Below are positions 1 to 19,388 of a stretch of DNA of 64,000 nucleotides, piece by piece. The position numbers and the translations under genes were made by a program. Numbering within the stretch: the stretch's first letter is position 1; every line of letters begins with the position of its first letter. The notes beneath the pieces are model-generated. The model did not search any database and was not told the DNA's origin. It saw nothing but the letters and a program-made list of their open reading frames with translations. The stretch is taken from contig JAGZIW010000006.1 in assembly GCA_018366035.1 (NCBI GenBank), forward strand, positions 126,847-190,846. The letters run 5' to 3'. Source of the DNA: Butyricicoccus pullicaecorum (GTDB lineage Bacteria; Bacillota; Clostridia; Oscillospirales; Butyricicoccaceae).

Positions 1-1008
1 GTGACCAAAAAGGTTACCGATTTGTTGGACGCAAAGGGAATGGCATATACATTGTATTCGGATATTAAACCAAATCCAACCATTGAGAATGTAAAGGCGG
101 GTGTAGAGGCATATAAGGCTTCGGGCGCGGATTATATGATTGCTATTGGCGGCGGTTCCTCTATGGATACCGGTAAGGCAATTGGCATTATTATCAACAA
201 TCCGGAGTTTGCAGATGTGCGTTCTTTGGAGGGCGTAGCGCCGACCAAAAATCGTACTGTATTTACCATTGCCGTTCCGACAACTGCGGGCACGGCTGCC
301 GAGGCAACCATCAACTATGTCATTACAGACGTGGAAAAGAAACGCAAGTTTGTTTGTGTAGATACAAATGATATTCCAGATGTTGCGGTTGTAGATCCAG
401 AAATGATGGCAAGTATGCCGAAGAAACTGACCGCTGCAACCGGTATGGACGCCCTGACCCATGCAATTGAAGGCTACACCACAAAGGCAGCATGGGAGTT
501 AGCGGACTGCCTGAACCTTGAGGCAATTCGTCTGATTTCTAGAGGTCTGCGCAGTGCAGTCAATGGGGAAGACGCAGGACGTGAGGATATGGCGCTGGGT
601 CAGTTTGTAACAGGTATGGCATTTTCGAATGTTGGTTTGGGTATTGCGCATTCAATGGCGCATACATTGGGTGCAGTATATGATACACCACATGGTGTTG
701 CCTGTGCAATGATGCTGCCGATTGTTATGGAGTATAATGCAGAGTGCAGCGGAGAGAAATATAAGGCGATTGCGGAGGCAATGGGTGTTGATACAACGGG
801 AATGGATCAGCTGGCTTACCGTAAGGCTGCCATTGATGCAGTGCGCCAGCTGTCTGTTGATGTTGGAATTCCGACTAAGCTGGAAGCACTCCGCGAGGAG
901 GACCTTGATTTTCTGGCAGAGTCCGCTTTTGCAGACGCTTGCTGCCCGGGCAATCCGAAGGATACTAATGTTGCGGATTTGAAGGAACTGTTCCGCAAAT
1001 TACAGTGA
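1..1008 (+). CDS. Iron-containing (group III) alcohol dehydrogenase, FucO/lactaldehyde-reductase-like. The 5' end is cut by the window edge.
   Basis: ORF 1..1008. Fe-ADH motifs are present (GGGSSMDTGK, HAIEGYTT, metal-site GIAHSMAHTLG). The family is typically about 385 aa, so about 50 N-terminal residues lie outside the window. Confidence 0.85.
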   Translation: MTKKVTDLLDAKGMAYTLYSDIKPNPTIENVKAGVEAYKASGADYMIAIGGGSSMDTGKAIGIIINNPEFADVRSLEGVAPTKNRTVFTIAVPTTAGTAAEATINYVITDVEKKRKFVCVDTNDIPDVAVVDPEMMASMPKKLTAATGMDALTHAIEGYTTKAAWELADCLNLEAIRLISRGLRSAVNGEDAGREDMALGQFVTGMAFSNVGLGIAHSMAHTLGAVYDTPHGVACAMMLPIVMEYNAECSGEKYKAIAEAMGVDTTGMDQLAYRKAAIDAVRQLSVDVGIPTKLEALREEDLDFLAESAFADACCPGNPKDTNVADLKELFRKLQ

Positions 1009-1110
1009 TAGAGGTTTACATATTTTGTAAGAACAAAGAGTGGTGCCGTATAAACAGCACCACTCTTTGTTTATCATCATATTTGAAATTCAAAAGCGAT
1101 TTTTTGGTAC

Positions 1111-1602
1111 TCACTCTGCACGTGAATCCGCGATTTGATTTGCACGTACCGTCGCATAAGCAGTTCCGCCTGTGACACTTTCAATTTTAATGCGGAATTG
1201 GCAGTTGGAACTGTCACTGCCTACATAAAATACCTCCTGCCGCTTTTCTCCTGGATTCATTTGCGGAGACATGGCAGAGACGATTTCTCCTTTTCCAATG
1301 TCATATAAATAGACATGGACAGGCTCTGAATCTTTTGGCACTTCACAGTACCAACGGAGATAGAAGCCCTCTCCCTTTTCCATAATAAATCTTGGGGTTT
1401 CATCTGTTCCGCGGCTGCCTGTATCCAAATTCCATTCCTGTAAAAGTGGATATGGCTGTGCTGGGGAAGATGCCAGAGCAGAAGCGTTGTCTGATTGGAT
1501 ATTTTGCGCTGTATCGACTGCATCAGCACGCATTACAGCGGCAGAGAGCAGCATGCAGCCCACAAACATAGCACTCAGGACTCTTTTTGCTTGATATTTC
1601 AT
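1111..1602 (-). CDS. Hypothetical secreted protein, about 163 aa.
   Basis: Internal Met start (MKYQAKRV..) followed by a signal peptide (…LLSAAVMRADA). There are no recognisable catalytic motifs. It lies downstream of repeat element B1. Confidence 0.55.
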   Translation of the reverse strand: MKYQAKRVLSAMFVGCMLLSAAVMRADAVDTAQNIQSDNASALASSPAQPYPLLQEWNLDTGSRGTDETPRFIMEKGEGFYLRWYCEVPKDSEPVHVYLYDIGKGEIVSAMSPQMNPGEKRQEVFYVGSDSSNCQFRIKIESVTGGTAYATVRANQIADSRAE

Positions 1603-1663
1603 GATAACACCCGCTTTTGCTATCAGATACTTAGTTTTTACTTGGAAGGAGTCAGATATATGA

Positions 1664-1836
1664 CATACAATGCCATAGTATAAAAACAGACACACCAAAG
1701 CGCTAGAGTGTGTCTGAAATATATTCCAAATCGGCAGAAAATAGAAAGAAAAGAAACAGATATACGCAAAGAATGGATCTCTGCCGAAGTTGGACGATTT
1801 AATAATTTTCTGTGTTCGTTCAGCTTATATTTACAG
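1664..1836. repeat. Repeat element B, copy 1, about 170 bp and about 85-90% identical to 2139..2300.
   Basis: Direct alignment by eye of 1664..1836 with 2139..2300. Both copies contain the hairpin CAGACACAC…GTGTGTCTG. Confidence 0.8.
1679..1716 (-). terminator. Intrinsic terminator-like hairpin inside B1, read on the minus strand.
   Basis: Minus strand reads CAGACACAC-(12 nt)-GTGTGTCTG followed by TTTTTAT. It lies between the A1 promoter and gene 1111..1602. Confidence 0.55.
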
Positions 1837-1980
1837 CGATAGAATCTATCGCATCTTAATAGCTTATGCAAAGCGGTGCTTAAATCACCATTTTCTTGCT
1901 GCTGCCAGTTTGCATGTCTCATAAGCTGCCTTACGACGTTAAATGTCAAATGATGTTTGCCCATGTTTTTTGAAGGGTTT

Positions 1981-2133
1981 ATATACATAATAGCATACAG
2001 ATGTACAATATACAATACCGCAGCAGAGAATGACCATATATAGCAGAGATTGGTAAAAATGATAGTACTACCATAGAGTAGAAAGCGTCTGTGGATATCA
2101 GCCTGTTTGTCGAGTTTCGGAAAACGGGTGAAA
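1981..2133. repeat. Repeat element A, copy 1, about 150 bp and homologous to 3466..3620.
   Basis: It shares a 42-nt identical block (GCAGAGAATGACCATATATAGCAGAGATTGGTAAAAATGATA) with A2, and the flanks are similar. Confidence 0.8.
1987..2015 (-). promoter_or_regulatory. Predicted sigma-A-type promoter in A1, minus strand.
   Basis: Minus strand reads TTGTAT -17 nt- TATTAT. This geometry is conserved with A2. The direct repeats TCTCTGC at 2023..2029 and 2043..2049 lie 7 nt upstream of the -35. Confidence 0.45.
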
Positions 2134-2138
2134 TGCAG

Positions 2139-2300
2139 CATACAATGCCATAGTATAAAAATAGACACACCAAAGCGACTCTGGTGTGTCTGAATATATT
2201 CCAAACCGGCAGAAAATAGAAAGAAAAGAAAAAGATATACACAAAGGATCTGCCGGAGTTGGACAATTTTGTATTTTTCTGTGTTTATTCAGTTTACCTT
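2139..2300. repeat. Repeat element B, copy 2.
   Basis: Homologous to 1664..1836. It lies immediately downstream on the minus strand of CDS 2342..3424. Confidence 0.8.
2152..2192 (-). terminator. Intrinsic terminator of gene 2342..3424, inside B2.
   Basis: Minus strand reads AGACACACC-(11 nt)-GGTGTGTCT followed by ATTTTTATA. Confidence 0.65.
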
Positions 2301-2341
2301 AGAAATACTTCTTAAATTATTTAACAGATTCAAAGAATTTA

Positions 2342-3424
2342 TCATAATTTCTCAAGCAATATGATACGCATAATATTAGAGTTGTCTGCTCGGAAACACT
2401 GTTCAGCGGCAGACAATCCGTTGGAATTGGAGAACATCATATTGCGGCAAGTGTCCTCGTCCTTGCCTTCGGCAATCGCTGTCAAAACGGCATCACAAGC
2501 AGTAATTGCTTGTTTTGCTTGTGCAATGGTTTCGTTGTAATAGTAATCCAAAACAGGTGTATCCGGCTTAGCAGTGTCCAGAACAGCCTGCATGGTTTTT
2601 TTACCAATTTCGGCACATTGCTTGATTTCGTCCTTGGTTGTTTGATTGTAATTTCGCTGCATCAGCAGAAAAATATTATTTTCCTTATCTGTTGAGCTAT
2701 TTGTACCTGTGACACTGGACGTATTTGCATCAGGTGTATATTGTTTTTGCAGATGTGCGGGAACATCACCACTCTGTGCAAGGTGTTCATAAGTAAATAA
2801 CTGTTCAATTGTGTCTATATAGGTGTTTCCAGCAGCGATTTGCGCGTCGGTCATGGCTGTGCGCAAGAAAATCATGGCTGGACCCTGTGTATCTTTTTCA
2901 CGGTAATTGATATCCATACCACATAACTCGCCGATATTGCGCACCGGAAGATAATTTGTGCTATTGTATTCAATGGGATAGATGACCTCACCGGCTGCAT
3001 TCTTAAAGGTCTGCACCTGATCATCTACGACAACCTTGATATCATCACGCAGTCTGGCAGTAATACCGTCTGTTGTCTCCTGAGAAGCGGTATCATCTTC
3101 TGGGTCGTAAGTGCCGGATTCTGCATGAATTAGCTTTTGTGTAGTACCGCTTAGTGTGATAGTTTTAGAGGACTCATTCCAAGAGACATTTTTTCCCATC
3201 CACTCACCAGCAGTACGAATCGGGATATAAGTGGTGCCATTATAGCTTAGAAAATCAATTTCTTTGCCATTTGCGTCCCAACAGTACGCTCGCCGTCCTT
3301 CGGTGTAGATACGTCCATTGATTGTATTTGCCTGAATATCAGATACAGCAAGTGCGTTCACACCACAGGACAGAATCGCTGCGGTCGTTGCGGTGAACAC
3401 CAATGTTTTCCAATATTTTTTCAT
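2342..3424 (-). CDS. Secreted protein with copper-amine-oxidase N-terminal-like repeats, about 360 aa.
   Basis: The RBS AAGAGGTG lies 7 nt before ATG(MKKYWK). A signal peptide is present. Two 'YIPIR/YLPVR'-type repeats (IDFLSYNGTTYIPIRTAGEWMG and VIYPIEYNSTNYLPVRNIGELCG) are typical of the Cu-amine-oxidase N-terminal domain common in clostridial cell-surface proteins. Confidence 0.7.
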   Translation of the reverse strand: MKKYWKTLVFTATTAAILSCGVNALAVSDIQANTINGRIYTEGRRAYCWDANGKEIDFLSYNGTTYIPIRTAGEWMGKNVSWNESSKTITLSGTTQKLIHAESGTYDPEDDTASQETTDGITARLRDDIKVVVDDQVQTFKNAAGEVIYPIEYNSTNYLPVRNIGELCGMDINYREKDTQGPAMIFLRTAMTDAQIAAGNTYIDTIEQLFTYEHLAQSGDVPAHLQKQYTPDANTSSVTGTNSSTDKENNIFLLMQRNYNQTTKDEIKQCAEIGKKTMQAVLDTAKPDTPVLDYYYNETIAQAKQAITACDAVLTAIAEGKDEDTCRNMMFSNSNGLSAAEQCFRADNSNIMRIILLEKL

Positions 3425-3465
3425 AAAAAACACCTCTTAAAATAATTATCTTATTTGAAGAATCT

Positions 3466-3620
3466 ATATGTATAGTAGCATGCAGATGTGTAATATACAA
3501 TATCACGGCAGAGAATGACCATATATAGCAGAGATTGGTAAAAATGATACATGACCATGAGATGGAAAGCCAGCTGTGGACAATCTGCACAGCATGCTTG
3601 TCTGGTTTAGGAAAGCTGGT
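3466..3620. repeat. Repeat element A, copy 2. It overlaps the last 4 codons of LytTR gene 3607..4332.
   Basis: Homologous to 1981..2133 with an identical 42-nt core block. Confidence 0.8.
3472..3500 (-). promoter_or_regulatory. Predicted promoter of gene 2342..3424 in A2, with upstream direct repeats.
   Basis: Minus strand reads TTGTAT -17 nt- TACTAT, about 40 nt upstream of the start codon. TCTCTGC repeats at 3508..3514 and 3528..3534 have a 20-bp period and lie 7 nt upstream of the -35. Confidence 0.5.
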
Positions 3621-4332
3621 GAAAACCTGTTTTTACAGACAGTTTCTGCTGAGCATTTTTTTGCAGATAGCTGAAAAATACAGCATGAAATTGTTTTCTG
3701 CGCATTCGGCTTATATTGATGTGGCTGCCGTTTATCATTTTGATGTCATCTTTCACAAAGTCTGAAATGTGATGCAGATTGATTAAGAAGCTTGCATGTA
3801 CCCGACAAAAATCATATTCTGCCAGCAGGGTTTCTACATTTTTTAATCTTGTGCGAATTGCATGTTGTCCATCAATTGTATGTGCTATCACAACGTAATT
3901 TTGACATTCAAAATATAAAATATCCTGCAAGGGCATACAAAAGGTTCTGCCATAATCATCGGTCAGAGTAATGGTTTTGCAGTTCGAAATCTGCAGCGCC
4001 TGTTGGAGCACCTCCTGAAATTTTTTCTCCTGTATCGGTTTTAGCAAATAGCGGAATGCAATACCGAATGCCTCTGCCGCACAGGTGCTTGTTTCACTCA
4101 CCAGAATAATGAGGGGCTTTTGCTTTCCCGTCATCAATATTTGGACTTGCTTCAAACGCTCTGAATGTTCTTCTTCAACATACAGGAAGATAAGCGGAAA
4201 GAACTCCTGTTTTGCACTTTCTATCAGACTTTCCATAGAATCAAAGCTGATATATGGGAGCGCTGCCGCATATTTTTGCAGCAGAGGCTCCATGCACTCA
4301 CAAATTTGAAAATCACAAATTGCTATTCTCAT
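3607..4332 (-). CDS. LytTR-family DNA-binding regulator with a degenerate N-terminal receiver domain.
   Basis: The C-terminal LytTR domain reads ITLTDDYGRTFCMPLQDILYFECQNYVVIAHTIDGQHAIR…FCRVHASFLINLHHI. The N-terminal receiver-like fold lacks the acidic pair and the phospho-acceptor Asp (FLYVEEEH sits at the expected position). Confidence 0.8.
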   Translation of the reverse strand: MRIAICDFQICECMEPLLQKYAAALPYISFDSMESLIESAKQEFFPLIFLYVEEEHSERLKQVQILMTGKQKPLIILVSETSTCAAEAFGIAFRYLLKPIQEKKFQEVLQQALQISNCKTITLTDDYGRTFCMPLQDILYFECQNYVVIAHTIDGQHAIRTRLKNVETLLAEYDFCRVHASFLINLHHISDFVKDDIKMINGSHINISRMRRKQFHAVFFSYLQKNAQQKLSVKTGFHQLS

Positions 4333-4487
4333 ACTTTAGCACCTATCCTGTCTCAGACCAAAGATCTTTTCAGTGTTTTTATGTCTGTTGTGTTTCAGTC
4401 CAACAAAAGCGAAACGTCTCTCATGATGAAAAGCAAGGGACACGCTCCTTGTTGGTTCAAAGTAATGATTTATTTAGTGGATAGGAT

Positions 4488-4754
4488 TTAGACATTGATC
4501 CAGTATGGGTCAACCCAACAGCCTTTCGTTTCATTCCAACGGCGATATTGCAACACACCGTCCGCATTCTGTCGATATTTATACACAATCTTATCTGCAT
4601 AGGGTGTTATATTAACATTAGATATCGTCATCAAAGATGTGGGCGTTACCGAAGTATTAATCTGTATGTTATGTAGTTCTGCTGCACTAGCTGCGCTTAT
4701 ACAAGCGCTTATGGATAGTAGAGTACCTAATGTACCGATAAATTTGAATTTCAT
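4488..4754 (-). CDS. Small secreted protein, 88 aa with a mature part of about 64 aa.
   Basis: A strong RBS GAGGAGGAG lies 8 nt before ATG(MKFKF). The signal peptide MKFKFIGTLGTLLSISACISAASAA is followed by ELHN. The gene abuts the stop of the blaR1-like gene, consistent with co-transcription. Confidence 0.55.
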   Translation of the reverse strand: MKFKFIGTLGTLLSISACISAASAAELHNIQINTSVTPTSLMTISNVNITPYADKIVYKYRQNADGVLQYRRWNETKGCWVDPYWINV

Positions 4755-4758
4755 TGTA

Positions 4759-5925
4759 TTACTCCTCCTCATATATTATTGGAAAGTCTGTATGTTTTTT
4801 GAAAAAATTGAAATTTTCTTCGGAGATTTGCTTAGAGTTTGTTCCTTCGATATGAATCCAATAAGTCCCATCTTTTTTGATTTCCATCTGAGTATTTGAT
4901 GGAGTCAAATCAATCGCATTCGGCTCAGTACTGGGCGGTGCTTCGTATACTGGCTGCGGGAGCAGAATATAGGATAGCGACAGCATGAGCACACAAACCA
5001 GCGTAACCAGAAAATGAGACAGCCTGTGCGTGTTTTTGGGGGGATAGTGCATGACCGCCTGAAAGCGCTCCTTGATATTTTTTGTGTCGTCAGAATGAAT
5101 AAATGCGGTTGCCGTATAGCAGGCTGGTTTGGACGGGGATATATTGCGCATCGCCATGACGATTGTGCGCAAATAAGCTGCTTTTTCCGGTTTCTTCATG
5201 TCACGAACCACGATGGTATCGCACTTGATTTCCAGCATTTGCTCTAAATCTTCCCTCAGCAAATATACAATGGGATTCCACCAGAAGATACAGCAAAATA
5301 TCGAAACTATAAATTTGATTAAGATATCGTGGTTTTGAAAGTGCGTATATTCGTGGAGCAGGATATAATACAGCTCCTCGTCGGTATACACATTTTTTGG
5401 AAGTAAAATTGCTTTGTGGAATAAACCAACACCAAAGGGGACTTCGATATTGGGCATTGTATAGAGGGAAACTTTTTGCGGCTTTGCAAACCTTCTCTGT
5501 ACCGATTCAAAGACCGTATATGCCTGTGTATGGCACATGCTGGCGTATTTTCGAATCTGTACACAGGCTTTGTGATAGCGGAAGAAATGCCGAATGAGCA
5601 GGAGAGTGGTAATTCCAGCCCAAAGTATGAGCAGAGCCTGTCCCACAGAAAGCGGAAAGCCAAATAACTCCATGAAATGTGTTTTCAAAAGGTTGCGGAG
5701 CGGCACATAGAACCACGCATATAGATATTTGTCGCCCAATACAATCACCTGCGCAATTTCCGCAGGAAAGAAGGCACGTGCCATACTCAGCAGATAGAGC
5801 ACAAGGATAGCCCAAAGACTAAATCCGCTTTTGACACAGTATAGCCTGCGAAGAACATACATGCCGCCAATTAAAAGTGTGCTCCAGAATATGGACGCCA
5901 AAAAAGAGCATAATGTTATCTGCAT
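4759..5925 (-). CDS. BlaR1/MecR1-family M56 zinc-metallopeptidase signal transducer lacking a penicillin-binding sensor domain.
   Basis: The HExxH motif LLHEYTHFQNHD is present with multiple N-terminal TM helices and a short C-terminal extracellular tail without SxxK/KTG motifs. The ATG(MQITL) start lies just after the blaI stop. Confidence 0.8.
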   Translation of the reverse strand: MQITLCSFLASIFWSTLLIGGMYVLRRLYCVKSGFSLWAILVLYLLSMARAFFPAEIAQVIVLGDKYLYAWFYVPLRNLLKTHFMELFGFPLSVGQALLILWAGITTLLLIRHFFRYHKACVQIRKYASMCHTQAYTVFESVQRRFAKPQKVSLYTMPNIEVPFGVGLFHKAILLPKNVYTDEELYYILLHEYTHFQNHDILIKFIVSIFCCIFWWNPIVYLLREDLEQMLEIKCDTIVVRDMKKPEKAAYLRTIVMAMRNISPSKPACYTATAFIHSDDTKNIKERFQAVMHYPPKNTHRLSHFLVTLVCVLMLSLSYILLPQPVYEAPPSTEPNAIDLTPSNTQMEIKKDGTYWIHIEGTNSKQISEENFNFFKKHTDFPIIYEEE

Positions 5926-5926
5926 A

Positions 5927-6355
5927 TCAATCTTTCTCCTGATCGGTTTCTTCAAAGATATCGATCATCTGTTCCAGTTCGTCAATCAGCTTTTCATATT
6001 TTGTGCGGTCGGTTTTCTTATCCTCTTTTTTTACAAGTGCCATGGCGATTTTTGCAAAGGAACTTGTGTTCACGCCTTGCTGTGCGAGCAGTTCAGCAAC
6101 ATATTCCTCCTTGCTCATGCAAGGCTTGAATTGTCTGGTATACCGCTTGCCCGACTTTACAAAGCCGCAGACCGCAAGGAATTCGGACTCCTCTAAAATG
6201 CCCAGCATTTTATGGATATAACTCATGCTCCAGTTTGCGGCTTCTGGATACTCTTTTGCCAGCGGCAGGATTTCCAAGCTGGTCAGCGGAACTCCCTGAT
6301 CCCAAAAAATATTGAGTAATGTTTCTTCGGAGTTGGATAGCTTCTTTTTATTCAT
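5927..6355 (-). CDS. blaI: BlaI/MecI/CopY-family transcriptional repressor.
   Basis: It is a 142-aa winged-helix repressor (…SNSEETLLNIFWDQGVPLTSLEIL…SYIHKMLGILEESEFL…) immediately upstream of the M56 peptidase gene. The RBS is AAAGGTGA. Confidence 0.8.
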   Translation of the reverse strand: MNKKKLSNSEETLLNIFWDQGVPLTSLEILPLAKEYPEAANWSMSYIHKMLGILEESEFLAVCGFVKSGKRYTRQFKPCMSKEEYVAELLAQQGVNTSSFAKIAMALVKKEDKKTDRTKYEKLIDELEQMIDIFEETDQEKD

Positions 6356-6414
6356 GGCAATCACCTTTCCTCACATATAATAACCATTTTGGTTTTTATA
6401 TATTTTATGGGGTT

Positions 6415-6443
6415 ATTATAATCAGATTTTGCTCAAAAGTCAA
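6415..6443 (-). promoter_or_regulatory. Consensus sigma-A promoter for the blaI operon.
   Basis: Minus strand reads TTGACT -17 nt- TATAAT, about 55 nt upstream of the blaI ATG. The inverted repeats TATAATAACC…GGTTATTATA in the leader are a candidate BlaI operator. Confidence 0.6.
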
Positions 6444-6461
6444 TATCATAATGGAATATAA

Positions 6462-6497
6462 AAAAAGCATTGATTCAAAAATCAATGCTTTTATCGT
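6462..6497 (-). terminator. Intrinsic terminator downstream of the GNAT gene (bidirectional hairpin).
   Basis: AAAAAAGCATTGATT-CAAAAA-TCAATGCTTTTAT, with A and T runs on both sides. Confidence 0.7.
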
Positions 6498-6508
6498 ATC
6501 TGTAAATT

Positions 6509-6790
6509 TTAGGATTCCTCCGCCAGCAGGTCTGCATGCTCAGGGTGCTGAGAAAACCATTTTTGTGCATAAGAGCAGGTGGGAATCGCTTTTTGACCCT
6601 TGCTGCGCAGCTCCTGTGTGAGTGCATCAATCAGCTTTCCAGCAACGCCTTGTCCTCTCAGCGAGGAGTCTACAACAGTGGAGGTGATTTCTATGGTGTC
6701 CTCAGTTCTGCTGGCAAATGCTACAAAGGCAATTTCTTCCCCGTTTTGATTTTCGAGCCAAATACGTCCTGTTTTCTTTTTGAAATCCAT
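6509..6790 (-). CDS. Small GNAT-family N-acetyltransferase.
   Basis: The 93-aa protein carries the acetyl-CoA binding motif RGQGVAGKLIDAL. Confidence 0.7.
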   Translation of the reverse strand: MDFKKKTGRIWLENQNGEEIAFVAFASRTEDTIEITSTVVDSSLRGQGVAGKLIDALTQELRSKGQKAIPTCSYAQKWFSQHPEHADLLAEES

Positions 6791-6821
6791 TTTGAAAACT
6801 CCTTTTTTTGATATCTTGTGA

Positions 6822-6867
6822 TATGGAAAACAAAGACCGTAAGCAGCTTACGCATTGCTTGCGGTCT
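6822..6867 (-). terminator. Intrinsic terminator downstream of the dsrE-like/trx operon.
   Basis: Minus strand reads AGACCGCAAGCA-loop-TGCTTACGGTCT followed by TTGTTTTCC. Confidence 0.55.
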
Positions 6868-6886
6868 GAATGTTTCTGATTGAAAA

Positions 6887-7258
6887 TCAGGTGAGCTGTA
6901 AAGAGCCTTTTGCGTTCATCAGCAGGGATACGACATCTGGTGCATTGATCAGTTCAAAGCGGCTGTCCATATCCTCGGCAGTAAAACCATTGTGGAGCAT
7001 GCAGGCGTTGCAAATGCAGACTTGACCGCCCAGCTGCAGGAATTCCTCCAGTTGTCCGCTGACCTCCGCAAAAGGAGCGCCAATGTCAATGCCCTTGGTG
7101 GCATTGGGCTTGCCGAGCGCTACCGCATCTACCATCAGAATGATGGTAGCGCTGTGTCCCTGCTTGAGTGCATTGAGTCCCATCACAACTGCAACTGTGA
7201 CATGATTGGGATTGGATTTTCCCTCGAATAAAGTCACTACGAAATCTGTATTGCGCAT
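6887..7258 (-). CDS. DsrE/DsrF-like family protein.
   Basis: The 123-aa sequence (VAVVMGLNALKQGH…CICNACM) fits the DsrE/DsrF fold family. Confidence 0.65.
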   Translation of the reverse strand: MRNTDFVVTLFEGKSNPNHVTVAVVMGLNALKQGHSATIILMVDAVALGKPNATKGIDIGAPFAEVSGQLEEFLQLGGQVCICNACMLHNGFTAEDMDSRFELINAPDVVSLLMNAKGSLQLT

Positions 7259-9398: not shown

Positions 9399-10316
9399 CT
9401 ATGTTATGGCATCTTTGGATTTTCTGGTATAGTTTGCTGCTATAATGCCGGCACTGACAAGACCCAATGCGCACCAGCTTTGGAATGTCCAGCTTCTCTC
9501 AGATAGAAAGACGGCGGACAGAATCGCGCCAAATACCGGAATGAGGAACCCGTATAGTGATACGGTGCCAACGGGCCACTTTTTCAGCAGCGTTGTCCAA
9601 ATGGTAAATGCGGCAGACGATAAAATGATAAGATAAAGCATCAGGAAGCAGCCCTTAATGGATAGCGTTCCAATCGAACCACCGCCGCCATAGCCCAGAG
9701 CAAGCAGGAAGATACCGCCCAGTGTGAGCTGCCAGCCGGTGAGAACCATGGGGTCCCGTCCGGCTGTCATCACACGGGACACCAAAGCGCCCATGCCGGC
9801 AGAAGCCGCTGACAGAAGTACCAGCCCATCACCCATGAGCGAGAAGCCCCCCAAATCTCCGCCCAGCTGCAAAAGCACGACACCGGAAAATCCCATGAGA
9901 CAGCCGATTGTCTTTGTCAGCGTCAGCTTATCATTTGCCAGAAAGATATGGGCAAACAGAATGGCAAAGAATGTCTGTGTGCCGGAAAGCAAAGCGCCCT
10001 TGGTTCCGGTTGTGTGGGACAAACCAATATAATAGCATACATATTGAATGATGCTTTGGAAAAGACAAATTGACAAAATGGCACCAATGTTGCTTCGATT
10101 GATGGGTATGTTACGCTTTCCGATAAGAAGCGCAATCATGAGTGTTAGAATTCCCGCCATTGTAAAGCGCCAGCCTGCAAACACCAGCTGTGAAAAGGAA
10201 TCCGAGCCGATTCCAAAGAGTGCGTAGCCGACCTTGATGCAGGGCACGGCGCTGCCCCACAATGCTGTGGTCAGGATTGCCGGTAATACCAATGTGAACA
10301 GTTTATGCTTTTGCAA
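9399..10316 (-). CDS. EamA/DMT-family transporter.
   Basis: The 305-aa protein has 10 predicted TM helices and two EamA-like halves. Confidence 0.75.
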   Translation of the reverse strand: MQKHKLFTLVLPAILTTALWGSAVPCIKVGYALFGIGSDSFSQLVFAGWRFTMAGILTLMIALLIGKRNIPINRSNIGAILSICLFQSIIQYVCYYIGLSHTTGTKGALLSGTQTFFAILFAHIFLANDKLTLTKTIGCLMGFSGVVLLQLGGDLGGFSLMGDGLVLLSAASAGMGALVSRVMTAGRDPMVLTGWQLTLGGIFLLALGYGGGGSIGTLSIKGCFLMLYLIILSSAAFTIWTTLLKKWPVGTVSLYGFLIPVFGAILSAVFLSERSWTFQSWCALGLVSAGIIAANYTRKSKDAIT

Positions 10317-10556: not shown

Positions 10557-11900
10557 TCAAAGCGCCAGCATGACAGAGGAGTGAAACACATGCAGGTCGT
10601 GAGTGAACTCCACCCCTCCATCGTATTTGTCTGCAATCGCCTCGATATTACGCAGCCCCAAACCGCTGTGATTAGGTTTGCTGGAAATATATCGGCCACC
10701 AACTTTTTTTGTTTCCTCGTGAAAGCCATTGTCCACAGTAATTGCCAGCATTTGCCCGTAACAGAGCATGTGAAACTGTATGAATCGCTCGTCCGGCTCT
10801 CCGCGGCTGGCAGCGTAGATGGCGTTTTCCAGCAGATTGCCGAGGATCACAGAAAGGTCGATATCCGAAATGGAAAGCGTATCAGGAATCTGGATACGGG
10901 CGTCAAAGCGAATATCCTCTTGTATGGCGATAGTCTGATAGTATCCAACGACCATGTTGACTATGGGGTTGTGGCAGAGCTCGATTAACTCATCTTGCTG
11001 AACAGCACACAGATACTGTTCCAAATATTCGCTTGCTTCCTGTACTTGGCCACGCTGCAAGAAGCCTTGCAGCGTAATAATATGATGCCGCATATCGTGA
11101 CGCAGCCGGCGGCTGTTCTCGATGTTGGTACAAATGTGATGATACTGTTCCTTTTGAATGGAAAGCAGGTGGCGGGTCTGACTTGTATCGTGCTGAGAGC
11201 GCAGCTTTTCATAGGAGAGATATATCATTTTGAAGAAGATGAGATAAATCGTCAGAACCAGCGCAAACAGGGCAAAATACAGGAACAGAGACATTGGATT
11301 ATAGAGGTATTCATAGTCGATGAAAGACAGCCCCACGGTCAGCAGCAGAAAGAGAAACAAGGGAAGTCCCGATAGATAGGTACATTCCTTGGCTGTCAGC
11401 TCAGCTTCCATCGGGCAGTAGTACCGAATCAGAATCAATAGGAACAAGGGCAGAATCAGTGCGGTGCTCAAAGCCAGACTGATAATTGTCCAGCTGCGGT
11501 AGGGAAGCCCGTCATAACCAGTGGAGGGGAGCAGGCGGGTACAGATGACATTGTTGATAGAAGTGATTACCAGTCCGCAGGTAAGGACAAAGGAAAAAAT
11601 AAATAGTTTTTTCTGCCAGATTTCTCTGACCAAATACAGATACCAGATCAGGCAGGGAAACAGACACAGGATAAAGGCCACGTTGACTGCTTGAAACAGG
11701 GTGTGGTCAGGAGGAAACAGCTGCTGTAAAGTACAGCCACCGATTGCAAAAAGTATAGCAAGTGTCAGGATCAGCCAAAGAGTCAAGACTACAGAGCGCT
11801 TTGTGGACAAGCGAAGATGTTTGCGGTAGGGATAAAACGCAAGGACAGCAAAGGGAATAATTTGCAGCAAAAAGCCGGTAAACAGTCGGAGAAAGGTCAT
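10557..11900 (-). CDS. Membrane sensor histidine kinase of the AgrC/ComD/BlpH-like (HPK10, GHKL HATPase_c_5) type.
   Basis: The 447-aa protein has about 8-10 TM helices. It has the H-box RHDMRHHIITLQG and a C-terminal GHKL ATPase region (N-box LLENAIYA, G-box GLGLRNIEAIADKYDGG). Its cognate LytTR regulator lies immediately upstream. Confidence 0.8.
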   Translation of the reverse strand: MTFLRLFTGFLLQIIPFAVLAFYPYRKHLRLSTKRSVVLTLWLILTLAILFAIGGCTLQQLFPPDHTLFQAVNVAFILCLFPCLIWYLYLVREIWQKKLFIFSFVLTCGLVITSINNVICTRLLPSTGYDGLPYRSWTIISLALSTALILPLFLLILIRYYCPMEAELTAKECTYLSGLPLFLFLLLTVGLSFIDYEYLYNPMSLFLYFALFALVLTIYLIFFKMIYLSYEKLRSQHDTSQTRHLLSIQKEQYHHICTNIENSRRLRHDMRHHIITLQGFLQRGQVQEASEYLEQYLCAVQQDELIELCHNPIVNMVVGYYQTIAIQEDIRFDARIQIPDTLSISDIDLSVILGNLLENAIYAASRGEPDERFIQFHMLCYGQMLAITVDNGFHEETKKVGGRYISSKPNHSGLGLRNIEAIADKYDGGVEFTHDLHVFHSSVMLAL

Positions 11901-11905
11901 GGCAT

Positions 11906-12616
11906 TTACCTCCGTGTCAGGTCGAATAGGAATCGTTGGTACTGTGCTTTGAGTTCGGCACGATTGTTTCTGGAAAGAGAAATTTCGGTTCCATCTTTCA
12001 GAATCAGCTTGCTGGAGAGAAAGGAACGAATAAATTCCATATTCACCACAAAGCTGCGCTGAGGTCGCAGAAAACGGCAGCTGTCCAATTGTTCAAAGAG
12101 CGTATTTAGAGAAGTGTAGGTCTGAAACTGCTGTGTATTTGTATGAACGATACACAGCTTATTAAACACCTCGATATAGGTGATTCGTTTGGCTGGAATA
12201 GAAATGCTGCCTTGACTGCTATGAATGTGCAAAACAGGGTTGGCACTCTCTCCCAAACGGGTAAGACAGCGATCCATTGCTTCCCACACGGCGGACTGCT
12301 CTAAGGGTTTGAGCAGATAGTGCACTGCGCCCAGACCAAAGGCTTCAATGGCGTGCTCTCGACTAGTGGTGATGAATACGACCTGTGGATCTCCGCCCAG
12401 ATGCCGAATGACTTCTGTGCCCAGAAGCCCGTCTAGATAAATATCCATGAAGATGATTTGAAAGCTCTGTGACATATCTAAAAGCGCTTCTCCTCTGAAA
12501 AAGCGTGTAATGGCAAATTCCAGACCGTGTGTGGATTGGTATGCCCGAAGAAAGGCTTCCAGAATATCGAGTTGCTGCGGTTCATCATCGCACAGCGCGA
12601 TCTGCAAGAGGAACAC
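11906..12616 (-). CDS. LytTR-family response regulator (ComE/AgrA-like).
   Basis: The receiver domain has an acidic N-terminus (LCDDEP) and the phospho-acceptor in IIFMDIYLDG. The C-terminal LytTR domain reads …YIEVFNKLCIVHTNTQQF…FLRPQRSFVVNMEFI. Confidence 0.85.
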   Translation of the reverse strand: MFLLQIALCDDEPQQLDILEAFLRAYQSTHGLEFAITRFFRGEALLDMSQSFQIIFMDIYLDGLLGTEVIRHLGGDPQVVFITTSREHAIEAFGLGAVHYLLKPLEQSAVWEAMDRCLTRLGESANPVLHIHSSQGSISIPAKRITYIEVFNKLCIVHTNTQQFQTYTSLNTLFEQLDSCRFLRPQRSFVVNMEFIRSFLSSKLILKDGTEISLSRNNRAELKAQYQRFLFDLTRR

Positions 12617-12969
12617 TTCCTTTCCTTATGATTTAGTTTATCATAACAACAAATCTGTTTCAGCACAACAAGTTATTTCGTAAAAAGCAGATTTTTGGCG
12701 TGAACTGCACATCTATGATTGGGGCGAGTCATATATAATAAAGATAAACCAAAAAGGTGAATCAAATTTTAATTAAGAAAGAGGCAGATGTTCTCTGTAG
12801 GAAAGGAGAGCACCTGTATTAGAAATTGATTCCACAATAGAAAGTTCCTATATAGATTAAGGTGTGCAATCTATTGCAGGGGCGCAGCAGACCCGTAATT
12901 GCAATAATTCATATGAGTTTAAGCCATTTTTTGATGACAAACAAGGGGAAGTGAAGAGGGGAAAAGGTC

Positions 12970-14133
12970 ATGAGAGTGTTGCAAAAGATAGGTATATTAT
13001 GTCTGACAATGTTTATAATGGCGGTGCTGACTGCTTGTGAAGCAGGGAAGGATCCTCAAAAAACTGTCGAAAAAACGACTGTACGTATAGCAGTAATGGG
13101 AAATCCTGAAAATTTTTACGCTTCTTATATGGACGGTATAGAAGCAGCTGTTTCTGATGTCCAAAAGGAGTATGCAGATACCGAATATCTCTTTGATGTT
13201 GAGTTTTTCAACGATGAATCAAATTATGAAAAAGGCATGAAAATTGTTGACCAATTGATACACAATGATGATTTTATCGGTGTAATCGGTTCGAGAAATA
13301 TGGAAATTAGCAGTGGAACCGCACATATTTTCGATGAGTACGGAAAGGTTTTCGTTGCACCATATTATATGTATGACAGTGTGTGTGCGGATAACTATTA
13401 TGATTATGTTTTTTCCATGTGCAGTTCTGCTAAAAATACAGGAATCCTTTTAAGAAAAGCAGCAGAGCAGAGCAATGCTGAAAAATGGGCAGCATGCTTC
13501 ACTTCCCGTGAATTTGAGAGAGACGAACTGATTGGTTTTGTAAATTATCAAGGTTACAAAACCGAAGTCGTAGACTGCATATCCATAGAGGAATTGAGTA
13601 AGGATTTCGATGCAGTGTATGATAAATGGGAGCTGTTAGGGGTGGAAGGTGTTGCTTTCTTTGTAAAAGAATTGGAAGGACATAACATCTTGAAGAAGCT
13701 GAAAGCGAAAAATCCGAATCTGGTTTGCGCAGGCGATATCTTATTTGATGACAGCTTGATGATGGAGGAAGATGCAGCATTTGAAGCCGGAATGAAAGAC
13801 TTCATCATAGCAGACGCTTTCTATTTAGATGAGAATGACGAAAGTGAAAACCAGAAGGTTGATCAGATTGCACAAAGCTATCTTCGTGAAAAGGGTATTC
13901 AGATAGATTATTGGTATTTGCAGGGCTATAATGCAGTGCGTATGCTTTGCGATACTGTTGTAAAAAATAAAACGACAGATCCAAAGGTGATAGCTGAGGC
14001 TTTGCACGTTGATGGATATGACGGGCTTATGCAGATATTCCAGTTTGATATGCGCGGTGTTCAGACCAAGGTTCCTGATTATTATCAAATCTATACATCA
14101 GAGGGCACTTGGAAGAAATATATTGCACATTAG
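12970..14133 (+). CDS. Lipoprotein with a type-I periplasmic-binding-protein (Leu/Ile/Val- or amide-receptor-like) fold.
   Basis: Lipobox LTAC after the signal peptide. The two-lobed PBP-like sequence (IAVMGNPEN…IGVIGSRNM…) is present. It is the first gene of the exporter operon and no permease or ATPase partner is adjacent. Confidence 0.65.
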   Translation: MRVLQKIGILCLTMFIMAVLTACEAGKDPQKTVEKTTVRIAVMGNPENFYASYMDGIEAAVSDVQKEYADTEYLFDVEFFNDESNYEKGMKIVDQLIHNDDFIGVIGSRNMEISSGTAHIFDEYGKVFVAPYYMYDSVCADNYYDYVFSMCSSAKNTGILLRKAAEQSNAEKWAACFTSREFERDELIGFVNYQGYKTEVVDCISIEELSKDFDAVYDKWELLGVEGVAFFVKELEGHNILKKLKAKNPNLVCAGDILFDDSLMMEEDAAFEAGMKDFIIADAFYLDENDESENQKVDQIAQSYLREKGIQIDYWYLQGYNAVRMLCDTVVKNKTTDPKVIAEALHVDGYDGLMQIFQFDMRGVQTKVPDYYQIYTSEGTWKKYIAH

Positions 14134-14144
14134 GGGGATCGTTA

Positions 14145-15019
14145 TGGGATTGTTCAGAGAAAAAGCCATGCAAAGCAGCAGTACATTATCTGATGTCGGA
14201 AGGGGAATTGCAGGTATTCGTATTTCTGTATGGCTTTCGGTCATGGGTCTTGGAATTTGTGCTGCCGTTTTTATGATATGGCTGTTTTTCGGCACGATAT
14301 ATGAGACTGTTTCCGTTACTGGACTTGTATGGCCTTTGGAATCTGGAGGAACAGTATATGCGGAAACAACAGGTATTGTAACAGGACAAGTGATATATTC
14401 TGGTGCAGAGGTGAAAGCTGGAGATATTTTGGCGATTTTATACGATGATGAAGCACTCATGCAGCTCGATCTTGCCAAAACAGAAAATTCTTCTGCCTTT
14501 GCAGAATTACAAAAAAAGTACATTAGAAAAACGGTTGTTCGTTCTCATGTTGACGGTATCGTATCGCACATTGTAGATAAGGATACTCGTGTTGCCGAAG
14601 GTGAAGTAGTAGCAGAGGTCATTCCCTTTGATAAAGACGGAAATAATAAAAGAATTACCACATTTATTCCGGCTGATCGGTTAGATCAAATCGAAAATAA
14701 TATGGAGGTTCAGATTGTCCCCGAATTTGCGTCACGGGATAGGGACGGATATGTCTATGGTTATATATCGAGTGTTGGAAAATATCCAATAACCGGAGAA
14801 TATGTCAAGCAGTATTATGATTCTATATTTTCTTTGGGTATCGATATGCAGGAAAAGTATATCTGTGTGGAAATCACAATGGTTTCCGACGCAAACGCAA
14901 AAAGTGGATTAAAATGGTCCAATACAAAAAGTGAGGAAATTGATATAGGTCTGGGAACGCTCTGCCATTGCGATGTTGTCACCAATAAGCTGCAGCCATA
15001 CCAGTATTTGGTCAGGTAG
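14145..15019 (+). CDS. HlyD-family membrane-fusion/adaptor protein (bacteriocin-secretion accessory type).
   Basis: The RBS GGGGGA precedes ATG(MGLFRE). There is one N-terminal TM helix and a biotin-lipoyl-like hairpin (VIYSGAEVKAGDILAILYD). It is shorter than LcnD/ComB (291 aa). Confidence 0.7.
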
Positions 15020-15027
15020 GTGACAGT

Positions 15028-17166
15028 ATGAAAAAAGTGAAAAAGGTAAAACCAGTATTACAGATGGAGGTTACGGAATGTGGTGCAGCTTCACTTTGTA
15101 TGATACTGGATTATTATGGAAAATCAGTTGCGATGGAGCAGCTGCGTCTTGAGTGCGGGGTTTCCAGAAATGGCGTCAATGCAAAAAATATAGCAAGAGC
15201 CTCTATGCTGCATGGGCTCAAGCCACGCGCCTTAAAGGTGGGCGTACATGCAGCAAAGGAATTGAAATTTCCTGCCATCATTCACTGGAATATGGATCAC
15301 TTTGTGGTGCTTTGCGGATTCACAAAAAAAGGTGCTGTGATTGCAGATCCAGCGTCAGGGCTAAGATATGTACTGGAAGAAGAATTTTCCAAAAACTTTA
15401 CTGGGATTGCGCTGGAATTTACACCGAATGAAAGCTTTGAAAAAAATAGAACGCTGAAAAAGGATTATATCAAATCCTGTCTAAAATCGTTCGCACTCGT
15501 TCTGATTATATTTGTGGTTTGTGAGTTTTGCATGCTCATATCTGGCGGTGTTCTTCCTTTTCTAAACTCAGTATACATTAATAAAGTGCTTTTAGATGGT
15601 AAAATGCAGCAGCTTTCCTTTGCAACTGCGGTATTACTTATTTGTTTGTTGATTGCTTTTTTTGGTGGTGTGATAAGGGCATATACCATAAACAAAATTG
15701 TAAAACAGTTGAATGCGAAATTGAATTTTGGATTTTTTGAGCATATATTAAAATTTCCCATAGAATTTTTCTTGCAGAGAAATTCCGGAGAGCTGGCTAT
15801 GAGGCAGGGGGAAGTGATGAATACGGGAAGATGGATTGTGATGATGCTGCCGTTTATCTTCACATCAATGCTTCAGATTTTCATATATCTGACACTTTTG
15901 ATTTTTATGAATCTAAAAATTGCAATCATTGGTGCTGTTATGGTCGTAGTGAATGCAATAGCCGTGGTAATCGCTTCCAAGCGGTATCGGGAAAAGGTTA
16001 TGAGATCTGATCGGGAACGCGCCACGCTGCAAGGGCTTATTTCGCAAACTATAGACGCTGTGGAAACGATAAAATCCTGTGGCTGTGAAGATGCTGTTTT
16101 TGAAAGGCTGATTTCTGCCGGCAGTATCGCAATCAATGCAAGAACAGAGATCGAAAAGACCACAGTTCTCACCAATACAGTATTTACATTTTTGAACGCT
16201 TTTTCCTCAGCTTTGGTGATTGTGGCAGGTGTATGGGAAATCTTATTCAGTTCTTTGACGACAGGCTCCCTGATTGCGCTTCAGGGGGTTATGGCGGCAA
16301 TGCTGGCACCAATTGGAAACGCGATGAATATGGGATTTCAGATGCAGCAGCTCTCTGGTATGACACACAGAACAAATGATGTCATGCGCTATATGACAGA
16401 TACAAAGTTTGCCGAAGCTGAGCAGAAAGAGTTAACAGAGCTGGACAGTGACATAACATTTGAAAACATCACGTTCGGATATAGCCCTTTGGATACGCCA
16501 ATTTTAAAGGATTTTCATTTCCATATAAAAAAAGGAGGCAGTCTAGCCATAGTAGGCGGCAGTGGCAGTGGAAAATCTACTGTTGCAAAGCTGATTGCAG
16601 GATTGTTTTGTGAACAAAACGGTAAGATATTTTTTGGCAGCAGCGAAAGAAAGGAAATCGGACGAGATGACTTCTATTCGGAGGTTGCAGTCGTAACACA
16701 AAGTATCAGGCTTTTTGAGGGAACTGTGCTGGATAATATCACCATGTTTGACAATACCATTCCGTATGATGATGTTGTCGCTGCGGCAAAAATCGCTTGT
16801 ATTCATGAGGGGATTATTGCAAGACCTTCAGGTTATCGTGAGTGGGTGTCAGAAAATGGAAGAAATTTTTCAGGTGGGCAAAGACAGAGAATTGAAATTG
16901 CAAGAGCAATTGTGAAAAAGCCAAAACTGCTGATTATGGACGAGGCAACAAGCGCCTTAGATGCGGACACGGAAATGGATATTATGCAGGCAGTGTCTGA
17001 CATGGGAATCACAACGATTGTAGTAGCACACAGGCTTTCTGCAATAAGATATTGCGATAGTATCATTGTTATGAGAAATGGAGAGATTGCAGAACGTGGT
17101 ACGCACCATGAGCTTATGGCAATGGACGGAGAATATGCTGCGCTTCAGAGAGAAGGTGATATCTAG
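15028..17166 (+). CDS. Peptidase-C39 domain ABC transporter (bacteriocin/peptide-pheromone exporter, ComA/LagD-like).
   Basis: The N-terminal C39 domain has catalytic Cys18 (VTECGAASLCMILDYYG) and His (HFVVL). It also has a 6-TM permease domain and an NBD with Walker A GGSGSGKST, signature SGGQRQRIEIARA and Walker B LLIMDEAT. Confidence 0.9.
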   Translation: MKKVKKVKPVLQMEVTECGAASLCMILDYYGKSVAMEQLRLECGVSRNGVNAKNIARASMLHGLKPRALKVGVHAAKELKFPAIIHWNMDHFVVLCGFTKKGAVIADPASGLRYVLEEEFSKNFTGIALEFTPNESFEKNRTLKKDYIKSCLKSFALVLIIFVVCEFCMLISGGVLPFLNSVYINKVLLDGKMQQLSFATAVLLICLLIAFFGGVIRAYTINKIVKQLNAKLNFGFFEHILKFPIEFFLQRNSGELAMRQGEVMNTGRWIVMMLPFIFTSMLQIFIYLTLLIFMNLKIAIIGAVMVVVNAIAVVIASKRYREKVMRSDRERATLQGLISQTIDAVETIKSCGCEDAVFERLISAGSIAINARTEIEKTTVLTNTVFTFLNAFSSALVIVAGVWEILFSSLTTGSLIALQGVMAAMLAPIGNAMNMGFQMQQLSGMTHRTNDVMRYMTDTKFAEAEQKELTELDSDITFENITFGYSPLDTPILKDFHFHIKKGGSLAIVGGSGSGKSTVAKLIAGLFCEQNGKIFFGSSERKEIGRDDFYSEVAVVTQSIRLFEGTVLDNITMFDNTIPYDDVVAAAKIACIHEGIIARPSGYREWVSENGRNFSGGQRQRIEIARAIVKKPKLLIMDEATSALDADTEMDIMQAVSDMGITTIVVAHRLSAIRYCDSIIVMRNGEIAERGTHHELMAMDGEYAALQREGDI

Positions 17167-19280: not shown

Positions 19281-19388
19281 CAAAAATGAGAAAGAGGTGA
19301 AAAGATAACAAGGAAAGAACTCATATATTTGCGTGAAAAATCACGCAGCAGGTTGTTCAATGCAAAATGAATTAAGGAGGGGAAAAAC

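Follow-up and report, generated by a model that had tools for sequence, protein, structure and literature searches.

Two copies of one promoter lie close together in a 64,000-nucleotide (nt) stretch of the Butyricicoccus pullicaecorum genome (contig JAGZIW010000006.1, positions 126,847 to 190,846; hereafter the window, with coordinates counted from its first letter). Each carries a pair of TCTCTGC boxes just upstream of its -35, and a gene predicted to encode a LytTR-domain regulator runs into one of them. The locus raises the question of which protein reads these boxes, whether it would need phosphorylation to do so, and which genes the promoters serve. From comparisons with related loci and with agr-type systems we conclude that the two cassettes, called A1 and A2, are probably controlled by a LytTR regulator, the likeliest binder being the product of the adjacent gene, a pseudo-receiver protein that would activate transcription without being phosphorylated.

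Two promoter cassettes and their copies

Read on the minus strand, both cassettes have the order TCTCTGC-N13-TCTCTGC-N7-TTGTAT-N17-TA(T/C)TAT (3534-3472 in A2 and 2049-1987 in A1), which is the geometry that the initial annotation had claimed for the two elements. The 42-nt block that it had described as identical between them was recovered at 2023-2064 and 3508-3549, and lies in a longer duplicated segment (1963-2064 versus 3448-3549) with 86% identity over 102 nt. A2 (3448..3620, a duplicate of 1963-2133) shares its upstream part with the 3' end of the regulator gene and continues with the boxes and the promoter. Transcription is predicted to start near 3465, which would place the distal box (3528..3534) at about -69 to -63 and the proximal box (3508..3514), 7 nt upstream of the -35, at about -49 to -43. 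The core promoter (3472..3500) consists of TTGTAT at 3500-3495, a 17-nt spacer and TACTAT at 3477-3472; the spacer ends in TGC, giving the TG of an extended -10. A1 (1963..2133) begins with a degraded copy of the LytTR gene's 3' end, followed by a distal box at 2043..2049, a proximal box at 2023..2029, again 7 nt before the -35, and a core promoter (1987..2015) with TTGTAT at 2015-2010, 17 nt and TATTAT at 1992-1987, from which transcription would start near 1980. In each of these two copies (A/T)TCTCTGCT is present twice at a 20-bp period.

Within the window, exact TCTCTGC-N13-TCTCTGC occurs in A1 and A2 only, against a uniform expectation of 5e-4, and three matches were found with up to two mismatches where shuffled sequences gave an expectation of 0.52. 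Relaxed scans with box variants and periods of 20-21 bp again returned A1 and A2 alone, and the wider regulon that had been suggested comes down, in the window, to these two promoters. Published LytTR sites consist of 9-bp repeats that are 11-13 bp apart and lie 4-11 bp upstream of the -35 (PMC6193735, Tables 2 and 3), and an extended -10 is frequent at LytTR-controlled promoters (PMC6193735). The repeats of A1 and A2 agree with such sites in length (about 9 bp), in separation and in period (20 bp, where 20-22 bp is expected), and they stand 7 nt before a -35 and -10 that face a gene in A2 and a gene relic in A1. The 20-bp period, the 7-nt gap to the -35 and the TGn are all inside the range given in PMC6193735, so the earlier proposal that repeats of this period abutting the -35 are a LytTR arrangement holds with respect to architecture.

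Copies of the cassette were collected from contigs encoding members of the regulator's clade and from 185,579 species genomes scanned with TYTCTKC-N13-TYTCTKC-N4-RTATTGTA. An exact-motif search of the diverged loci had missed L003 altogether and given a single site, with two mismatches, in L004, which was insufficient since the boxes there read TTTCTTC; the pattern was therefore widened to TYTCTKC. This yielded 17 copies, in the window and in L001, L003, L004, L006, L009, L012, L014, L017 and L102. Fourteen were aligned in register, and the remaining three, from L102, were added separately. The cassette co-occurs exclusively with the regulator clade: every contig with the regulator and enough downstream DNA (the window, L001, L003, L004, L006, L009, L017 and L102) has a cassette within a few kb, and true copies in the species-genome scan were limited to two Butyricicoccus metagenome-assembled genomes (MAGs), both with the regulator gene. 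Seven pattern matches outside Butyricicoccus (in Bacteroides, Bifidobacterium and others) have nothing in common beyond the pattern and were rejected as chance.

The number of boxes per copy is two or three, always at a strict 20-bp period, and TTGTA(T/C/A), a 17-nt spacer ending in TGn and TAnnAT were found in 14 of the 14 aligned copies. The boxes change in pairs by lineage while their spacing stays fixed, reading TCTCTGC twice, TTTCTGC twice or TTTCTTC twice, with a mixed TTTCTTC/TCTCTGC pair in L004; the core TnTCTnCTATATA is invariant across four diverged lineages. The window was compared with L017, L003 and L004, whose regulators are 60-78% identical to the one described here: the sequence before the distal box is 24-28% identical, the stretch reaching from that box to the -10 is 64-81% identical, and the ~20 bases transcribed first are 75-85% identical. 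Judged by these alignments there is a clean phylogenetic footprint that begins at the distal box. On these comparisons the two-box element beside the -35 is supported as a conserved regulatory module, as opposed to the result of chance or mere duplication.

The conserved first ~20 transcribed bases, ACAnAnAGATTCTTC (~3465-3447 in the window), are 75-85% identical in all lineages. In what we call type-2 5' untranslated regions (5'UTRs) the start region forms a perfect palindrome, TTCTTCGAAGAA (for example L001 11150-11175), which may act as a second operator or be a feature of the RNA. One copy, at L012 2045-2083 (JAGZIN010000001.1, from a MAG), lies outside the array at another place in the chromosome, between uvrA and recJ/relA, so the cassette module can be dispersed. 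It has two boxes, TTGTAC-17-TATGAT and a type-2 5'UTR, and precedes a gene for a 189-amino acid (aa) multi-pass membrane protein with no Pfam match. The uvrA and recJ genes that flank this site are not in the 64-kb window.

The adjacent regulator and its agr-type relatives

The initial annotation had described an atypical LytTR regulator gene that physically overlaps A2. The gene (3607..4332, minus strand) does overlap the upstream edge of the cassette, and its 241-aa product matches LytTR in Pfam (E = 1.8e-16) and has no Response_reg (PF00072) match, even at E<=1 for residues 1-122. In an AF2 (AlphaFold2) model with a predicted local distance difference test score (pLDDT) of 83, a (beta-alpha)5 domain is joined to a LytTR domain. 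The receiver-like part spans ~120 residues, with strands 3-6, 27-30, 47-51, 74-79 and 94-97 alternating with five helices (pLDDT ~85), and residues 228-241 are disordered. The best Foldseek matches to the model were full-length ComE (4cbv) and AgrA-DNA (4xqn), plus receiver (REC) domains; target-normalised template modelling scores (TM-scores) were 0.7-0.84 for REC domains and ~0.8 for AgrA LytTR-DNA structures.

Alignment of the regulator with its canonical relatives showed CDF--Q where they have CDDE, two residues and the acidic pair after beta1 being gone. The phospho-acceptor Asp is also gone in the clade, which has FLYVEEE, FLGIEQE or FLHVEEE versus FLDIEM, and the conserved Lys (YLLKP) is kept. 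A search of 5.8 billion proteins found a small clade (P0001-P0007) at 60-100% identity, followed by a step to relatives at ~40% identity that have a normal receiver domain. The CDF--Q and Asp-loss signature is common to the whole 60-100% clade, and the exact match to the regulator is named as a Butyricicoccaceae MAG protein. Because the receiver fold is retained in the model without the acidic pocket and the phospho-acceptor Asp, the regulator is a pseudo-receiver. No kinase adjoins its gene, the sole HATPase_c_5 kinase being 6 kb away and paired with another regulator. No AgrB or AgrD homologs were found in the window or in eight related loci by tblastn with the relatives' proteins, and none among the neighbours by Pfam. 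Since the acidic pocket, the Asp, a nearby kinase and agrBD have all been lost, the regulator probably acts without phosphorylation.

The last 14 codons of the regulator gene (QQKLSVKTGFHQLS, 3607-3648, minus strand) are confined to lineages with a 241-aa protein. A decayed copy of the gene's 3' end stands before internal cassettes, for example at 2075-2133, from which it follows that the array grew by copying the gene end together with the downstream promoter.

The nearest phosphorylatable relatives (P0010, P0011 and P0008) are 40% identical to the regulator overall and 42% in the LytTR domain. In their loci agrB-agrD (48 aa, ...TTCLFESYQPEVPE...) is divergent from genes for a helix-turn-helix (HTH) protein, a response regulator and a histidine kinase (HATPase_c_5). 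Five promoters there (agrBD and two downstream of the kinase) have the form [C/T]ACTGCA-N14-[C/T][T/A]CTGCA-N6-TTGnnn-16/17-TATAAT. Between the boxes these agr-type loci have unrelated sequence, and the proximal CTCTGC lies 7 nt from the -35, the same distance as in the window. A combined regular expression run over 904 kb, including 80 unrelated LytTR loci, found only the five agr-type promoters and 11 cassette copies, and is blind to copies with a TCTTC box (L003, L004 and L006 position 3432). The CTGC box pattern was in none of the 80 control loci, which encode distant LytTR regulators (24-33% identity) and came from a metagenome scan with the regulator alignment; no clade member was among the matches of that scan. 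These comparisons indicate that the regulator descends from AgrA-like response regulators of agrBD/histidine kinase systems.

Unplaced agr-like loci, with agrB-agrD (48 aa) divergent from an HTH (XRE), response regulator and kinase run, are at L016 894-4352, L019 1094-4656 and L020 166-2122. In these an extra XRE-type HTH gene stands between the promoter and the response regulator, and the L016 locus adjoins conjugation-type genes (TpcC, Lysozyme_like).

The agr-type promoters bear on whether the boxes have a regulatory role at all. The repeats might be a by-product of tandem duplication of the cassette and 20-bp slippage in front of a constitutive extended -10 promoter. The change between two and three boxes among copies is what slippage would give, most copies are recent duplicates, the core promoter joins an optimal 17-nt spacer to a TG extension, and intact genes are still preceded by box-less derivatives. 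We consider this the least probable of all the explanations weighed here: the conservation boundary at the distal box is sharp among lineages with 60-78% regulator identity, the same core recurs at the same distance to the -35 in five independent agr-type promoters with unrelated inter-box sequence, and the pattern is absent from the 80 control loci.

A second possibility is that a different, phosphorylatable LytTR regulator binds the boxes and that the pseudo-receiver serves as its competitor or co-regulator. This could be an AgrA encoded elsewhere or the second LytTR response regulator that had been predicted at 11906-12616, 8 kb from the cassettes' regulator, whose presence is supported by Pfam. 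Together with the kinase at 10557-11900 (HATPase_c_5) it forms a canonical pair that is syntenic in L102. There is precedent in the activator/repressor pair PlnC and PlnD, which are reported to bind the same repeats with opposite effects (PMC2714321), and pseudo-receivers are often in need of a partner (PMC12632262). However, the LytTR domain of the adjacent regulator is 26% identical to that of the 11906-12616 protein versus 42% to those of the CTGC-box relatives, no box pair is found near the operon of the second regulator, and the pattern is in 0 of 80 loci of comparably distant LytTR regulators. Neither the window nor the related loci encode an AgrB or AgrD homolog, and short contigs of diverged lineages carry the cassette with the pseudo-receiver gene alone. 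A different LytTR protein, and the second regulator in particular, is thus an unlikely binder.

The related motif that had been placed in 12617-12969, ahead of an exporter operon, proved to be a single degenerate half-site, TTCTCTGTAGG, that has no partner at 19-23 bp and fails every relaxed two-box scan; it does not qualify as a site. A direct-repeat search of this and other intergenic regions gave only weak 8-of-9 pairs unrelated to the boxes. The operon-like run that follows (12970-27431, plus strand), divergent from the second regulator and kinase, contains genes for a periplasmic binding protein, an HlyD-like protein and two ATP-binding cassette (ABC) transporters (~700 aa), and a 2680-aa open reading frame (ORF).

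Genes and modules around the cassettes

The order on the minus strand is BlaI-like gene, BlaR1/M56 gene, 88-aa gene, LytTR regulator, A2, Cu_amine_oxidN1 gene, B2, A1, X, B1 and 163-aa gene, where B1, B2 and X are the modules described below. The gene directly served by A2 (2342..3424) is predicted to encode a secreted 360-aa protein with a Cu_amine_oxidN1 domain (Pfam PF07833, E = 3.4e-10), with a 5'UTR of ~41 nt and AAGAGGTG as the ribosome-binding site (RBS). Orthologs or paralogs of this protein are found behind cassettes in L001, L006, L014 and L102. It had been proposed that both cassettes control secreted-protein genes, which fits A2 and not A1, where a relic and then the B1 terminator precede the 163-aa gene.

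The relic lies in region X (1832..1980, minus strand), in which a type-2 cassette 5'UTR is joined to what is left of a deleted Cu_amine_oxidN1 paralog, its last ~35 codons. The first part of X aligns to the cassette 5'UTRs of L012 and L006, and the remainder to the final ~115 nt of a paralog of which L014 keeps an intact copy. By these alignments X holds no intact gene. A small ORF in X was considered as a peptide gene and rejected: it has no RBS, has a stop after 5 codons in L006, and aligns as relic. The gene beyond (1111..1602, minus strand) is predicted to encode a secreted 163-aa protein with no Pfam match. In this strain no boxed promoter can be recognised for that gene itself, and the B1 terminator lies 80 nt before its ATG. 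Its ortholog in L001 has a 3-box cassette directly upstream, and that in L102 has a box-less derivative promoter. Because the gene relic and the B1 terminator intervene, A1 is not a direct promoter of the 163-aa gene and, as the locus reads, can serve it only via read-through of B1.

B1 and B2 are copies of a second duplicated module that the initial annotation had overlooked. B2 (2139..2300, minus strand; repeat families D2, D3 and D5) is a 3' element followed by an intrinsic terminator with a hairpin at 2191-2163 and a U-run (-19.6 kcal/mol, z -5.3). B1 (1660..1831, minus strand), the second copy, lies between A1 and the 163-aa gene and has a hairpin at 1716-1687 followed by UUUUU (-14.6 kcal/mol, z -3.5). 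The two are 83-97% identical in families D2, D3 and D5. The module folds into a long-range stem (UCCAAC..CGGCAGA / UCUGCCG..UUGGA) enclosing a ~37-nt pyrimidine-rich loop, UCUUUUCUUUCUAUUUUCU, and then the terminator hairpin. A B-type 3' module follows each cargo gene and was also seen at L001 7990-8110, 9460-9580 and 10870-10960 and at L004 3480-3590; the pyrimidine stretch and the TTGGAATA motif are still discernible in the diverged L004 lineage. An Rfam search of positions 1-7000 matched no family at E<=1; neither the cassette nor the relic RNA nor the B module is thus a known RNA.

Some intact cargo genes are preceded by box-less derivative promoters (L001 ~9580-9660; L102 ~14960-15050 and ~16330-16420). 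In these the B tail ATTGTATGCTG is joined directly to the spacer and -10 of the cassette, TGTGATAATAT, and the conserved start region, apparently through deletion between ATTGTATGCTG in the B tail and its copy at the -35. A further decayed box-less version, without a -10, lies at 1603-1680 in the window, before the 163-aa gene.

The cargo proteins have a nearly common signal peptide, MKxxVKKILSAMFVGCMLLS..., on unrelated mature domains (signal-peptide sites: window 1518-1602, minus strand; L001 9668 and 11200; L009 6950; L003 3352; L017 1480; L004 1683). In BLASTP from residue 33 to the end, most cargo proteins showed no similarity to one another. With the signal peptide kept and the mature domains unrelated, promoter, 5'UTR and signal peptide can be taken as one module that is fused to varied domains. 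A Pfam search of the cargo proteins found nothing above threshold except Cu_amine_oxidN1. The cargo is not bacteriocin-like, consisting of Cu_amine_oxidN1 proteins and of proteins of no recognised family with Sec-type signal peptides.

Upstream of the regulator gene is a block encoding a BlaI-like repressor (6364-5927), a BlaR1/M56 protein with a short C-terminal region that is not of the penicillin-binding protein type (5955-4759), and, between it and the regulator, an 88-aa secreted protein (4754-4488), all on the minus strand. The block is found at 4488-6364 in the window (minus strand) and at L001 3977-5847, L003 122-388 and L018 395-592, with a secreted protein of 87-89 aa whose conserved C-terminal sequence is YRRWNETKxCWVDPYWI. 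The block may provide the regulator's controlling input. In L004 BlaR1 is mostly deleted. The BlaI-like gene has a strong promoter (TTGACT-17-TATAAT; 6420-6376, minus strand) whose -10 is within a perfect 10-bp inverted repeat, TATAATAACC ... GGTTATTATA, with arms 25 nt apart; this repeat may be a repressor operator or a leader hairpin.

This block suggests another kind of binder, in which a regulator of a different family, either the BlaI-like repressor or an AraC-type protein, recognises the repeats. In L001, L006, L009 and L102 the LytTR gene is likewise preceded by conserved BlaI and BlaR1 (M56) genes, and AraC-type proteins also use direct repeats ~21 bp apart beside the -35. The A1 spacer (2009-1993, minus strand) holds the palindrome TACAtcTGTA, which resembles BlaI/MecI operators. 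The spacer of A2 and of most other copies reads CACAtcTG(C/T)A, and neither form is in L003 or L004. A BlaI-type operator in the promoter spacer was rejected, as it is not conserved among copies, TACAnnTGTA being absent from A2, L003 and L004. Moreover, BlaI-type proteins bind palindromes and not direct repeats phased at 20 bp, and the BlaI promoter itself has a different inverted repeat and no boxes. The cassette persists in L004 though BlaR1 is largely deleted there, and no AraC gene is in the conserved block. We regard a regulator of another family as highly improbable.

A proposed mechanism and its relation to known systems

All three alternatives are less likely than control by the adjacent regulator, for which we propose the following. 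The 3607-4332 protein would bind, as a dimer or a head-to-tail oligomer, to boxes of the form T(C/T)TCT(G/T)CT that, being 20 bp apart, would lie on one helix face. The box centres would fall near -46 and -66, and a weak -35 (TTGTAT/C/A) and an extended -10 (TGnTAnnAT) follow directly. Once bound, the protein would act as AgrA does at P2 and P3, by recruiting RNA polymerase or stabilising it, with an output that depends on how much of the protein is made or on another input. A2 would then drive the Cu_amine_oxidN1 secreted-protein gene directly, and A1 would give a ~300-nt transcript over the gene relic that ends at B1 or reads through into the 163-aa gene. The box pair is centred near -56 in the cassette, not far from the promoter-proximal AgrA repeats at about -60 (PMC4227749).

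Several observations weigh against this proposal. The period is 20 bp in the cassettes versus 21 bp in the canonical relatives. With its 17-nt spacer and extended -10 the core promoter should be fairly competent alone, and the boxes may modulate rather than switch it, while the AgrA-dependent P2 and P3 are deliberately poor promoters (PMC4227749). LytTR quorum-sensing systems usually regulate themselves, whereas no box pair was found ahead of the regulator gene (4333-4487) or of the BlaI-like gene. Another LytTR regulator, paired with a kinase, is 8 kb away. Most copies are recent duplicates (at least 85% identity), so that only four or five lineages are independent, and the box-less promoters before some cargo genes mean that control through the boxes is dispensable for some members of the array. 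DNA binding, activation as opposed to repression, independence from phosphorylation and the start sites are all what we infer from sequence.

The closest known arrangement is that of agr P2 and P3 in Staphylococcus and in the agr-like loci of Clostridia, where the regulator also has a LytTR DNA-binding domain and a REC-fold N-terminal domain, and where a direct-repeat pair also lies immediately upstream of the -35 (PMC4227749). By contrast, agr systems have agrB, agrD and a partner kinase, none of which is beside the regulator gene here, and they have a phosphorylatable receiver, of which the acidic pocket and the Asp are lost here. They are also autoinduced, whereas no loop is visible here in the absence of boxes before the regulator's own gene, and the P2 and P3 spacers are a suboptimal 18-20 nt where the cassettes have an optimal 17 nt. 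The AgrA box consensus is ACAGTTAAG, from which the cassette box sequence differs. The homology to AgrA notwithstanding, the gene content indicates that the locus is not an agr system, because AgrB, AgrD, an adjacent kinase and the phosphorylatable Asp are missing.

The LytTR Regulatory Systems HdrRM and BrsRM resemble the locus in having direct repeats before the -35, an extended -10 and secreted products (PMC6193735), and their regulators act independently of phosphorylation (PMC6193735). Those regulators consist of a LytTR domain alone, whereas a degenerate receiver domain is present here. They are also co-transcribed with a membrane inhibitor, whereas here no membrane-protein gene is adjacent, the downstream gene being that of the secreted Cu_amine_oxidN1 protein with its own promoter, and their own operons have autoregulatory repeats that are not found here. 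Given the REC-like domain and the lack of both a membrane inhibitor gene and autoregulatory repeats, the locus is not a system of the HdrRM type.

In its receiver the regulator is more like HP1043/HsrA, ChxR, BldM and RitR, kinase-less orphans with a receiver fold but without phosphotransfer residues, whose activity presumably depends on how strongly they are expressed or on another input (PMC12632262). Their outputs are of the OmpR/PhoB or NarL type, unlike the LytTR output found here. PlnC/PlnD of Lactobacillus plantarum and ComE/BlpR share with the locus the use of the same LytTR repeat pair before several -35s in one locus and secreted products (PMC2714321); their regulators are phosphorylated by peptide-sensing kinases, and their bacteriocin-like products have no counterpart in the cargo here. 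The literature searched contained no account of a pseudo-receiver combined with a LytTR output, which is weak evidence of novelty, and nothing specific on Butyricicoccus agr systems. The element itself would work as an AgrA, ComE or PlnC site does. The locus as a whole is best described as an AgrA-derived pseudo-receiver with conserved AgrA-type boxes, serving an array of secreted-protein genes that varies between strains and is composed of repeated promoter and terminator modules.

More tentatively, and with considerable doubt, the locus might represent a new signalling arrangement. In it a non-phosphorylatable AgrA descendant would act downstream of a BlaI/BlaR1-type protease sensor and the 88-aa secreted protein, with the amount of regulator as the switch. 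The targets would be a fast-shuffling array of secreted proteins made of interchangeable modules (boxed promoter, 5'UTR, shared signal peptide, variable mature domain and 3' hairpin/terminator), in which cargo is gained, lost or unplugged by recombination between modules.

Butyricicoccus is a butyrate-producing gut commensal, and to our knowledge almost nothing has been established about its gene regulation. The analysis defines, for an uncharacterised Butyricicoccus regulator, both the protein and its candidate operator target, T(C/T)TCT(G/T)CT at a 20-bp period. The cassettes may be of use as natural parts (boxed promoter, signal peptide and terminator) for expression work in the Butyricicoccus group. 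If binding is confirmed, the regulator would possibly be the first pseudo-receiver with a LytTR output, as far as the literature searched goes. The locus also suggests an evolutionary route by which an agr-type quorum-sensing regulator was left without kinase, peptide genes or phosphorylation site but with its DNA boxes, and would now serve strain-variable secreted proteins.

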